From Escherichia coli (GTDB lineage: Bacteria > Pseudomonadota > Gammaproteobacteria > Enterobacterales > Enterobacteriaceae), in the NCBI RefSeq assembly GCF_003334385.1, contig NZ_QOWN01000005.1: a stretch of 64,000 nt of DNA. One strand, 5' to 3'. Positions 6,633 through 7,993 of this stretch are shown here, in pieces. Under the pieces are notes generated by a model that was given only the letters and a program-made list of their open reading frames with translations, had not been told where the DNA came from and made no database searches. Numbering within the stretch: position 1 is the first letter of the stretch; the number at the start of each line of letters is the position of its first letter. Both the position numbers and the translations under genes were made by a program.

Positions 6633-7445
6633 ATGATTTCACGCCGCCGATTTTTGCAGGCTACTGCCGCGACGATAGCCACGAGCTCAGGTTTCGGTTA
6701 TATGCATTACTGTGAGCCAGGCTGGTTTGAATTAATCCGTCACCGCCTCGCCTTTTTTAAAGACAACGCAGCACCATTCAAAATTCTTTTTCTGGCCGAT
6801 CTCCATTACTCTCGTTTTGTTCCTTTAAGCCTGATTTCTGACGCGATTGCTCTTGGCATAGAACAAAAGCCCGATTTGATATTACTGGGCGGCGATTACG
6901 TATTATTTGATATGTCGCTGAATTTTTCGGCGTTTAGTGACGTACTCTCCCCCCTTGCCGAATGTGCGCCGACGTTTGCCTGCTTCGGCAACCACGATCG
7001 CCCTGTTGGTACAGAAAAAAATCACTTAATTGGCGAGACGTTGAAATCAGCGGGCATCACGGTGTTGTTTAACCAGGCTACGGTGATCGCCACGCCGAAC
7101 AGGCAATTCGAACTGGTAGGCACTGGTGACTTATGGGCCGGACAATGCAAACCGCCTCCCGCCAGCGAAGCCAATCTGCCAAGACTGGTGCTGGCGCATA
7201 ATCCCGACAGCAAAGAAGTCATGCGTGATGAACCCTGGGATCTGATGCTGTGCGGCCATACTCACGGCGGGCAACTGCGCGTACCGTTGGTTGGTGAACC
7301 TTTTGCCCCTGTCGAAGATAAACGTTACGTCGCCGGATTAAATGCCTTTGGCGAAAGACACATCTACACAACCCGTGGCGTGGGCAGTTTGTATGGTTTG
7401 CGTCTGAACTGCCGCCCGGAAGTAACGATGCTGGAACTGGTGTAG
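6633..7445 (+). CDS. yaeI: Calcineurin-like metallophosphoesterase with twin-arginine signal (270 aa)
   Basis: MISRRRFLQATAATIA Tat-like N-terminus; GDYV and GNHD phosphoesterase motifs. Confidence 0.9.
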   Translation: MISRRRFLQATAATIATSSGFGYMHYCEPGWFELIRHRLAFFKDNAAPFKILFLADLHYSRFVPLSLISDAIALGIEQKPDLILLGGDYVLFDMSLNFSAFSDVLSPLAECAPTFACFGNHDRPVGTEKNHLIGETLKSAGITVLFNQATVIATPNRQFELVGTGDLWAGQCKPPPASEANLPRLVLAHNPDSKEVMRDEPWDLMLCGHTHGGQLRVPLVGEPFAPVEDKRYVAGLNAFGERHIYTTRGVGSLYGLRLNCRPEVTMLELV

Positions 7446-7606
7446 ATCGTGAATTTTATCACCAGAATAAAGCAGGTAATTTTTTGATTTTTACGCCATG
7501 ATAGAAGTCTGGAAGAAAAAGGCTTTCTGCGATCACAGTCGAGCCGGGCGGGCCAGGCCAAATGCTAAAATAAGCACAATTTACTGACTCATTTTGAGGT
7601 AACGCT

Positions 7607-7993
7607 ATGTACGACAATCTGAAAAGTCTGGGTATTACCAATCCTGAAGAAATTGATCGTTACAGCCTCCGGCAGGAAGCCAACAACGATATTCTGAAAA
7701 TCTATTTCCAGAAAGACAAAGGCGAGTTTTTCGCCAAGAGCGTTAAGTTTAAATATCCGCGTCAGCGTAAAACGGTCGTCGCTGATGGTGTGGGTCAGGG
7801 TTATAAAGAAGTCCAGGAAATCAGCCCGAATCTACGGTATATCATTGATGAGCTTGATCAAATCTGCCAGCGTGACCGCAGCGAAGTTGATCTTAAGCGT
7901 AAGATCCTCGACGACTTACGTCACCTGGAGTCAGTCGTAACCAATAAGATCAGCGAGATTGAAGCCGATCTGGAAAAACTAACGCGTAAATAA
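7607..7993 (+). CDS. yaeH: UPF0325 family protein (128 aa)
   Basis: [34 protein letters not shown]... Confidence 0.9.

Follow-up and report, generated by a model that had tools for sequence, protein, structure and literature searches.

A predicted Tat-exported metallophosphoesterase, YaeI, encoded by an accessory gene between dapD and the separate gene yaeH in Escherichia coli

The segment between dapD and cdaR of Escherichia coli raises the question of what kind of enzyme YaeI is and on which side of the inner membrane it would act, and whether yaeH, the small gene that follows on the same strand, has anything to do with it. The window, i.e. the whole stretch of 64,000 nucleotides that was analysed, is in this region 100% identical at the DNA level to E. 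coli K-12 MG1655 (dapD, yaeI, yaeH and the convergent cdaR), for which RefSeq names the two genes 'phosphodiesterase YaeI' and 'DUF3461 family protein'. Both genes, the motifs and leader of YaeI and the stem-loops behind yaeH lie where the first-pass annotation of this DNA had placed them (Table 1). That observation is correct and also an ordinary one, as both genes are already annotated in K-12; the Tat leader and the phosphoesterase domain of YaeI are likewise to be found in public annotation, and the family has been discussed in print. With good though not complete confidence, we regard YaeI as a Tat-exported protein whose gene is an accessory passenger of the locus, YaeH as a separate cytoplasmic protein, and the hairpins behind yaeH as terminator or 3'-end structures.

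Table 1. Features of the dapD–cdaR region, in positions of the window
Feature	Position	Strand	Description
Candidate promoter of yaeI	6545-6572		Weak 8/12 match within dapD
dapD intrinsic terminator	6591-6618	+	8-bp GC-rich stem, then T7; -17.6 kcal/mol, z -4.0
yaeI CDS	6633-7445	+	270 aa, start MISRRRFLQ; binuclear metallophosphoesterase with twin-arginine leader
Predicted Tat signal peptide	6633-6698	+	YaeI residues 1-22; S3-R4-R5-R6-F7-L8-Q9, A/T/G/S-rich h-region, candidate site G-F-G|Y23
RRRFLQ	6642-6659	+	YaeI residues 4-9
YaeI catalytic core	6798-7265	+	Five motifs: D56-x-H58, G87-D88, G119-N-H-D122, H189, G208-H-T-H211
DLH	6798-6806	+	YaeI motif
GDYV	6891-6902	+	YaeI motif
GNHD	6987-6998	+	YaeI motif
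GHTH	7254-7265	+	YaeI motif
yaeI-yaeH spacer	7446-7606	+	161 bp
Candidate extended -10 promoter of yaeH	7563-7571	+	TGcTAAAAT; a GAGG ribosome-binding site also lies in the spacer
yaeH CDS	7607-7993	+	128 aa, DUF3461/UPF0325, without signal peptide
Stem-loop 1	7995-8017		-7.3 kcal/mol (+ strand), z -1.6; 14 of 200 shuffles at least as stable
Stem-loop 2	8018-8050		10-bp AUUCCCCUC/GAGGGGAAU stem and small inner stem; -18.4 kcal/mol, z -4.1; 0 shuffles match
cdaR	8082-9257	-	Convergent neighbour; its transcript enters both stem-loops

The catalytic domain of YaeI

The Pfam profile Metallophos (PF00149) covers residues 49-212 of YaeI (E 7e-13), and the NCBIfam equivalog model for phosphodiesterase YaeI (NF008460) gave 531.3 bits (cut-off 188), with residues 1-270 aligned. 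As hallmarks of the superfamily we used the motifs DxH, GDxx(DR), GNH(D/E), a fourth His and GHxH, which bind two metal ions. The calcineurin-like motifs GDYV and GNHD, which the first-pass annotation had pointed out, are present, and the metal-motif residues are invariant across 62 homologues (identity down to 43%) except for H209, conserved to at least 90%. YaeI reads GDYVLF, and the DR of GDxxDR is missing here as well as in the family consensus. With regard to the structure, the prediction that had been proposed as a check yielded a confident metallophosphoesterase fold, a four-layer alpha/beta sandwich (AF2, pLDDT 94.7), which Foldseek matched at a probability of 1.00 to Mre11, GpdQ, Rv0805 and CD73, with 5'-nucleotidases among the matches. 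The 5'-nucleotidase UshA of E. coli and GpdQ of Enterobacter share the binuclear fold of YaeI (Foldseek E 1e-5 to 1e-4, TM about 0.48), but they are only 12-15% identical to it, with UshA carrying an additional domain at its C-terminus; the fold match is uninformative as to a shared substrate. Searches of solved structures by sequence gave no match for either YaeI or YaeH. With a dN/dS of 0.10-0.15, yaeI is subject to purifying selection in the genomes that have it.

The assay with bis-pNPP, also proposed beforehand, is covered in part by public annotation, in which a homologue carries the name 'phosphodiesterase with model substrate bis-pNPP'. The roles of the two genes had been described as not well defined, and our literature search agrees with this, since it returned no paper on a substrate of YaeI and none on DUF3461. 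The gene neighbourhoods of distant YaeI homologues contained neither a conserved partner nor a consistent hint of a substrate. The neighbours seen there were a PF01663 phosphodiesterase, another metallophosphoesterase and an inositol phosphatase, one instance of each, and this is too thin for a substrate to be named from neighbourhoods. PADLOC models of anti-phage defence gave zero matches to YaeI, YaeH and an extra ORF.

The twin-arginine leader and the relatives of YaeI

The n-region of YaeI, S3-R-R-R-F-L-Q9, agrees with the Tat consensus S/T-R-R-x-F-L-K, and R4 and R5 are invariant in all 62 homologues, so that the leader RRRFLQ reported earlier is clearly present. A strict RR motif was found in 93 of 101 full-length relatives; the strict pattern rejects RRRRW, which most of the remaining relatives visibly carry. 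The generic signal profiles gave marginal values, as judged by a borderline match of Pfam TAT_signal to residues 1-17 (E 0.004) and by 16.5 bits for the NCBIfam model TAT_signal_seq (TIGR01409), just below its cut-off of 16.7. In an allele of yaeI that is split by IS1, RefSeq calls the N-terminal fragment a Tat signal domain protein. All Tat leaders of E. coli were reportedly tested by Tullman-Ercek et al. in 2007.

The closest comparison is with YkuE of Bacillus subtilis, a Tat-dependent, cleaved metallophosphoesterase of the cell wall (Monteferrante et al. 2012, as described in PMC5449189). The catalytic domain and, directly before it, an N-terminal twin-arginine leader are common to YkuE and YaeI, and in an alignment the short homologue of E. 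coli was placed with YkuE in one family (PMC5449189). The two proteins differ in that YkuE is bound to the cell wall of a Gram-positive host, whereas YaeI would be periplasmic, and in that Tat dependence was measured for YkuE but is predicted from the sequence for YaeI. YkuE binds Mn and Zn, and we know of no physiological substrate for YkuE either.

The invariant arginines, the conserved metal ligands, the weak hydrophobicity of the leader (see below) and the membership in the YkuE family support the earlier suggestion of an exported phosphodiesterase, and the best reading is that YaeI would receive its metal in the cytoplasm and work, after export by Tat, as a phosphodiesterase of the periplasm. 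YaeI would then fold and take up two metal ions in the cytoplasm, the S-R-R-R-F-L leader would be recognised by the Tat translocase, and the protein would be exported to the periplasm, where it would hydrolyse phosphodiester or pyrophosphate bonds of its substrate; the leader would probably be cut off just ahead of the conserved Tyr23. It should be underlined that export, leader cleavage, metal loading and activity in vivo are steps that we infer.

Two other placements of the protein have to be weighed against this. YaeI might not be released at all: the twin-arginine segment would stay uncleaved as a Tat-inserted N-terminal anchor, and the catalytic domain would be held at the inner membrane, facing the periplasm. 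The AF2 model is consistent with such an arrangement, as residues 4-30 are predicted as one unbroken helix (pLDDT 83-89), and so is the sequence before Tyr23, which in K-12 YaeI is G-F-G and not the canonical A-x-A. Longer relatives point in the same direction. Polytopic YkuE-like metallophosphoesterases share the catalytic domain of YaeI and an RR motif directly before their last hydrophobic segment, which is homologous to the leader and constitutes the last, Tat-dependent span (PMC5449189); they have three additional N-terminal membrane spans (four predicted spans in all), whereas YaeI begins at the RR motif, and insertion of the four-span proteins involves both Sec and Tat (PMC5449189). The h-region of YaeI is, however, only weakly hydrophobic (mean Kyte-Doolittle value 0.9-1.15, lower than that of buried strands of the same protein) and would therefore make a poor membrane anchor. 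Furthermore, both -1 and -3 of the conserved Tyr are occupied by small residues in 43 of 62 relatives, and the short forms of E. coli and B. subtilis have been termed soluble variants, the signal of YkuE being cleavable (PMC5449189). At +3 after the same Tyr, R, H or K is found in 58 of the 62, in line with the basic residue that Tat signals have close to the cleavage region. An anchored YaeI appears unlikely to us on this evidence, and we retain the periplasmic, released enzyme as the preferred reading.

The second placement, implied by automatic GO annotation, is on the opposite side of the membrane: YaeI would be a cytoplasm-facing UDP-2,3-diacylglucosamine hydrolase that acts in lipid A synthesis like LpxG, the UDP-2,3-diacylglucosamine pyrophosphatase of Chlamydia trachomatis (PMC4807358). 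LpxG is calcineurin-like with DxH, GD, GNHD and GHxH, as is YaeI, and its profile (NCBIfam NF033458) is that of the nearest characterised family (E 4e-35). A T7 phage-receptor screen, in which insertions in yaeI were enriched, repeated the lipid A annotation (PMC7414163). YaeI nevertheless fails the LpxG model, with 121.8 bits against a curated cut-off of 350, and GDxxDR, which is stated for LpxG (PMC4807358), is GDYVLF in YaeI. The substrate of LpxG is cytoplasmic and the protein carries a transmembrane helix at its N-terminus (PMC4807358), while the invariant Tat leader of YaeI predicts a catalytic domain on the other side of the membrane, the wrong one for a UDP-linked cytoplasmic substrate; for this and for the low score, membership in the LpxG family was rejected. 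Moreover, about 61% of E. coli genomes and most Enterobacteriaceae do without yaeI, and for this step of lipid A synthesis E. coli relies on LpxH, the screening host of the LpxG study being an lpxH conditional-lethal E. coli (PMC4807358). We hold an LpxG-like role to be highly improbable. Given that YaeI has the build of an exported protein and scores below the LpxG cut-off, the automatic label 'lipid A biosynthesis' is probably wrong.

Distribution and expression of yaeI

Among 5426 complete E. coli genomes, yaeI was present in 2084, whereas 3339 had an unrelated filler of 129 bp in its place, which amounts to a clean two-allele split over 5423 genomes. The filler was considered as a decayed yaeI and rejected, as the two have only chance 8-14-mers in common. 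Outside the species, Citrobacter, Klebsiella, Enterobacter and others have the conserved dapD-yaeH-cdaR backbone without yaeI, this order being found at 75 of 80 species loci. Base composition, taken as a sign of recent transfer, gave no signal (51.4% GC for yaeI and 51.3% for the window). By its distribution, yaeI is an accessory passenger of a variable slot between dapD and yaeH, and because most E. coli strains are without it, results on yaeI from K-12 do not carry over to E. coli generally. A much more speculative reading, which we think has little chance of being right, makes YaeI a periplasmic enzyme that varies between strains and trims a phosphodiester or pyrophosphate group of the envelope (e.g. 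of the LPS core or lipid A), related to LpxG but working on the outer side of the inner membrane; if so, the polymorphism of yaeI would be maintained via surface properties such as phage susceptibility. The sole hints in this direction are the relationship to LpxG, the enrichment of yaeI insertions after T7 selection in one screen (PMC7414163) and the two-allele split.

With regard to expression, the dapD terminator ends 14 nt ahead of the yaeI start codon, a distance too short for a separate yaeI promoter behind the terminator. No sigma-70-like site of 9/12 or better was found between 6400 and 8300, and the sole promoter candidate for yaeI is the weak match within dapD. As the gene is positioned directly behind the strong dapD terminator, its expression is probably weak. 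yaeI appears in a list of rpoE regulon genes (PMC5105897). A sigmaE promoter was sought in the 500 bp upstream and rejected: the best site reached 9/12 with G in place of the -10 TC, while the degP sigmaE promoter, used as control, was recovered at 12/12. The only match in an Rfam scan of 6300-8400 (E up to 1) was sroE over the dapD terminator, which at 21 bits stays below the gathering score (51) and was taken as chance.

yaeH and the stem-loops between yaeH and cdaR

That yaeH is a small UPF0325 gene was borne out by its profile matches, which extended over positions 1-125 of 125 in Pfam PF11944 (DUF3461/UPF0325, E 2.7e-55) and reached 244 bits in NCBIfam NF010213 (cut-off 150). Its dN/dS is close to 0, indicating extreme purifying selection. 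The predicted fold combines a PH-like domain with a helical hairpin and was likened to PH-like domains, bacterial ones included; such a fold, if correctly modelled, points to a binding or adaptor role and less to catalysis. With conservation as tight as that of its essential neighbour dapD and a function that the literature has not addressed, yaeH represents a real gap in knowledge.

The two genes lie adjacent on the same strand, 161 bp apart, and might on these grounds form one functional unit, either as an operon or as an enzyme with its partner. The distribution argues strongly against this, since yaeH keeps its place, together with the 150 bp upstream, in the 3339 E. coli genomes with the filler, and is in place without yaeI in the 75 species loci as well. 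The last 150 bp or so of the spacer (7457-7606) are 98% identical to the corresponding DNA of strains without yaeI; the spacer contains a binding site of the RpoD holoenzyme that has been assigned to a single-gene yaeH operon, and the two genes are listed as separate operons (PMC3946193). In some lineages a further gene is inserted between yaeI and yaeH, the selective constraint on the two differs about ten-fold, and YaeI is predicted to be exported whereas YaeH has no signal. Distant homologues of yaeH stand alone among unrelated neighbours, with no conserved partner. A common unit is thus extremely doubtful. As most E. coli and other genera have yaeH at this place but no yaeI, yaeH is not a partner of yaeI and the adjacency is without functional meaning; YaeH is cytoplasmic, separately transcribed and unrelated to YaeI.

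The region behind yaeH had been described as two strong stem-loops lacking U-tracts, and this description holds only in part. Stem-loop 2 is strong, whereas stem-loop 1 on its own is not, as judged by z and by the number of shuffles that fold as well (Table 1). On the + strand, i.e. the side of yaeH, neither hairpin is followed by a U-tract (GAGCCAGCG comes after hairpin 2), and yaeH therefore has no GC-rich hairpin with a subsequent U-tract that would qualify as an intrinsic terminator. On the opposite strand, however, the pair ends in a U-rich tail: in the complement of hairpin 1, a stem of 8 pairs, of which 4 are G-C, precedes AUUAUUUACG. The scan flags this hairpin as terminator-like, but its stem is weak. 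Because of this tail the pair may serve cdaR, stem-loop 1 being a candidate cdaR terminator. Lying between the convergent yaeH and cdaR, both stem-loops are most simply terminator or 3'-end(-protecting) structures, a role that we infer from their position and folding. A dispersed repeat such as REP or BIME was considered and rejected, as the stem-loops were without an Rfam match and occur in exactly one copy per genome in each of their carriers (3566 of 5426 E. coli genomes). An alternative allele has, at the same place, one hairpin followed by a U-rich tail.

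Layout of the dapD–cdaR interval

When compared with 5426 complete E. coli genomes by megablast, the stretch from 6500 to 8150 was 100% identical to K-12 MG1655 and to many others, and the MG1655 annotation at the locus reads dapD, 'phosphodiesterase YaeI', 'DUF3461 family protein' and cdaR. The gene names, coordinates and motifs proposed in the first-pass annotation all agree with the open reading frames and with MG1655; its observation on yaeI and yaeH is confirmed and its interpretation supported. The yaeI/yaeH finding is itself a restatement of existing annotation. What is added here is that yaeI is accessory, that yaeH is independent of it, that the export signal of YaeI conflicts with its lipid A label, and that yaeH is unusually strongly conserved, none of which represents a new kind of system.

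Features of the locus (window coordinates unless stated otherwise)
Feature	Position	Remark
dapD 3' end	within 6300-8400	first element
dapD terminator	6591-6611 plus T7	strong
yaeI allele	6615-7456	alternative to the filler allele at one site
Filler allele	616-744 of comparison locus L001	alternative to the yaeI allele at one site
yaeI	6633-7445
yaeI-yaeH spacer	between 7445 and 7607	161 bp
yaeH	7607-7993
Two adjacent stem-loops	7995-8050
cdaR end	8082	convergent

Over the dapD terminator hairpin (6575-6618, minus strand), Rfam gave a match to sroE that is below threshold (21 bits, gathering score 51; E 0.085) and most likely due to chance.

Occurrence and expression of yaeI

The slot between dapD and yaeH is variable, and yaeI, which can occupy it, is an accessory gene. 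With yaeI alone as the query, the gene was found in 2084 of the 5426 genomes, while a search with the alternative sequence placed an unrelated, unannotated filler of 129 bp there in 3339; the two alleles together account for 5423 genomes. The alleles have common flanks (98% identity), namely the stem of the dapD terminator to the left and the ~150 bp immediately preceding yaeH to the right. Between these flanks, about 840 bp with yaeI and the 129 bp without it are completely different, and the allele comparison detected no similarity between the two segments. An earlier pan-genome comparison noted that yaeI is enriched in phylogroup A (bioRxiv 10.1101/096479). Base composition gave no signal of recent transfer of the gene.

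Among 80 species loci around yaeH (one genome per species), 75 have dapD-yaeH-cdaR without yaeI, including those of Citrobacter, Klebsiella, Enterobacter, Raoultella, Kosakonia and Cedecea, most with a spacer of about 112 bp. yaeI was present only in the five Escherichia loci, given as L005, L006, L008 and L015 (E. albertii, a species representative labelled E. coli, E. whittamii and Escherichia sp. MOD1-EC7003), and one cryptic-clade Escherichia locus lacks it. Protein look-ups added Superficieibacter electus (YaeI 65% identical) and a record labelled Salmonella enterica (84% identical), both with the gene in the same position. In MOD1-EC7003 (L015 3172-3882) and the Salmonella-labelled record (L084 3822-4556), an extra open reading frame of 236-244 aa lies between yaeI and yaeH; its two copies share 61% identity and had no match in Pfam, NCBIfam or PADLOC. 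L084 also carries an IS110-family transposase between yaeH and cdaR. The protein collection contains many truncated YaeI products. In E. coli strain 1506, an IS1 element lies inside yaeI (NZ_CP059288.1 3696077-3698504, hit H1/H51), and RefSeq names the N-terminal remnant 'twin-arginine translocation signal domain-containing protein'.

With regard to expression, 14 nt separate the yaeI start codon from the end of the T-run in the dapD terminator. A scan of 6400-8300 found no sigma-70-like site of at least 9/12; the best candidate upstream of yaeI, at 8/12, lies within dapD and before the terminator. We infer that yaeI would depend on read-through of the terminator or on a weak internal promoter, so that its expression would be low. 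The sigmaE link reported for yaeI was not supported by our scan, though the sigmaE promoter of degP, the positive control, was recovered as a perfect match (GGAACTT, 16 nt, TCTGA; about 10891-10863, minus strand).

Export signal, fold and lipid A label of YaeI

The N-terminus of YaeI, M-I-S-R-R-R-F-L-Q, fits the Tat consensus S/T-R-R-x-F-L-K well. Generic Tat HMMs were borderline (Pfam TAT_signal, E 0.004; TIGR01409, 16.5 bits against 16.7), and the conservation seen in the family makes a much stronger sequence-based case for a Tat leader. R4 and R5 are invariant in an alignment of 62 homologues (43-92% identity to the query, the distant ones mostly from Verrucomicrobiota and other environmental bacteria), and of 101 full-length relatives, 93 fit a strict RR-x-hydrophobic pattern; RRRRW, which falls outside the pattern used, is visible in most of the others. 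The arginines are followed by 14-21 residues, mostly A/G/S/T/L, whose mean hydrophobicity in K-12 YaeI (0.9-1.15) is below that of buried strands of the same protein. A nearly invariant Y-x-(R/H)-x-x-E-P-x-W then leads into the first strand. Relative to its Tyr, positions -1 and -3 are small in 43/62 homologues and +3 is basic in 58/62. The Tat leader RRRFLQ noted at first pass is supported by the invariant arginines, the weak hydrophobicity and the basic +3 residue. Tullman-Ercek et al. (2007) reportedly included the E. coli YaeI leader in their reporter tests.

The main rival explanation is that the N-terminus is an uncleaved anchor, as suggested by the G-F-G, not A-x-A, ahead of the Tyr in K-12 YaeI and by the AlphaFold model, in which residues 4-30 are drawn as a single helix (pLDDT 83-89). 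Taken together, the features of the leader look like those of a cleavable Tat signal carrying a charge that disfavours Sec, cleavage being predicted, not proven. The Bacillus subtilis metallophosphoesterase YkuE carries a cleavable Tat signal peptide, and the literature supports its family link with YaeI (Tooke et al., PMC5449189).

As an enzyme, YaeI contains a calcineurin-like phosphoesterase domain at residues 49-212 (Pfam, E 7e-13) and reaches 531 bits with the NCBIfam YaeI equivalog model (cut-off 188). The metal-binding residues D56, H58, G87, D88, G119, N120, H121, D122, H189, G208 and H211 are invariant in the 62-homologue alignment, and H209 is at least 90% conserved. Structure prediction, proposed in the first-pass annotation, gave a confident AlphaFold model with a metallophosphoesterase fold (pLDDT 94.7, pTM 0.91; the same alignment as input). 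The solved structures closest to it in fold, 12-18% identical, are generic metallophosphoesterases (Mre11, GpdQ, Rv0805 and 5'-nucleotidases), and a search of solved structures by sequence returned no relative. The predicted fold confirms the superfamily and is silent on the substrate. Among Escherichia species yaeI has a dN/dS of 0.10-0.15, indicating that YaeI is kept functional where present. In a general enzyme screen by Kuznetsova et al. in 2005, YaeI reportedly hydrolysed bis-pNPP, an activity echoed by the source name of one homologue, 'phosphodiesterase with model substrate bis-pNPP'.

The database annotation of YaeI as 'involved in lipid A biosynthesis', repeated in a phage-receptor study (PMC7414163), comes from similarity to the chlamydial pyrophosphatase LpxG. 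The two proteins are related (E 4e-35), yet YaeI reaches 122 bits against a curated cut-off of 350. The substrate that LpxG cleaves is a UDP-linked intermediate of the cytoplasm, and the enzyme has a membrane helix at its N-terminus (PMC4807358), whereas YaeI has an invariant export signal. Since most E. coli strains lack the gene, membership of an essential pathway is ruled out. Given the missed cut-off, the invariant export signal and this absence, the lipid A label is doubtful.

yaeH and the downstream stem-loops

yaeH is independent of yaeI. Strains and genera without yaeI retain yaeH in the same place and with its upstream region, and an extended -10 element (TGcTAAAAT, 7563-7571) lies 35 nt upstream of its start codon. 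Genomic SELEX placed an RpoD-holoenzyme site in the yaeI-yaeH spacer, with the two genes as separate single-gene operons (PMC3946193). yaeH is under very strong purifying selection and as constrained as the essential dapD, with values in the same range (dN 0 to 0.007, dS 0.27-0.66, dN/dS 0-0.02). Among 1.84 billion clustered proteins the family has 172 representatives, making it small and narrow, and distant homologues are stand-alone genes with unrelated neighbours. YaeH has no signal peptide; AlphaFold models a five-stranded sheet (16-71) followed by two long helices (74-90, 93-127), a predicted PH-like fold plus helical hairpin (pLDDT 85, pTM 0.57). No literature on its function was found; mentions of YaeH are confined to proteomic lists and to its use as a linked marker. 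In P0305, a 4103-aa protein of the representative library, 11 stretches match YaeH residues 25-80 at 27% identity, which suggests that the sheet region may also occur as a repeat module in this giant protein.

Hairpins are a normal arrangement between convergent genes. At first pass two strong stem-loops without U-tracts were described here; the lack of a U-tract holds on the yaeH strand, but hairpin 1 (7995-8017) is weak (-7.3 kcal/mol, equalled by 14/200 shuffles), and it is hairpin 2 (8018-8050) that is significantly stable (-18.4 kcal/mol, 0/200). The pair folds better on the cdaR strand (-35.3 kcal/mol for an 81-nt stretch, z -3.2), where it ends in AUUAUUUACG and is called terminator-like by the scan. 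The double hairpin, present in 3566/5426 genomes, is single-copy and therefore not a REP-type repeat; it matched no Rfam family. In the other genomes a different allele occurs, whose single GC-rich hairpin is followed by GUAAUUUUGUAAU and looks like an ordinary yaeH terminator. At least three unrelated alleles of the yaeH-cdaR spacer (7994-8081 in the window) occur in E. coli and close relatives: the K-12 double hairpin, the single hairpin with a U-rich tail and a longer 114-bp version (comparison loci L002 1277-1328 and L003 1990-2103). We read the K-12 stem-loops, as judged by sequence, as candidate termination or 3'-end-protecting structures.
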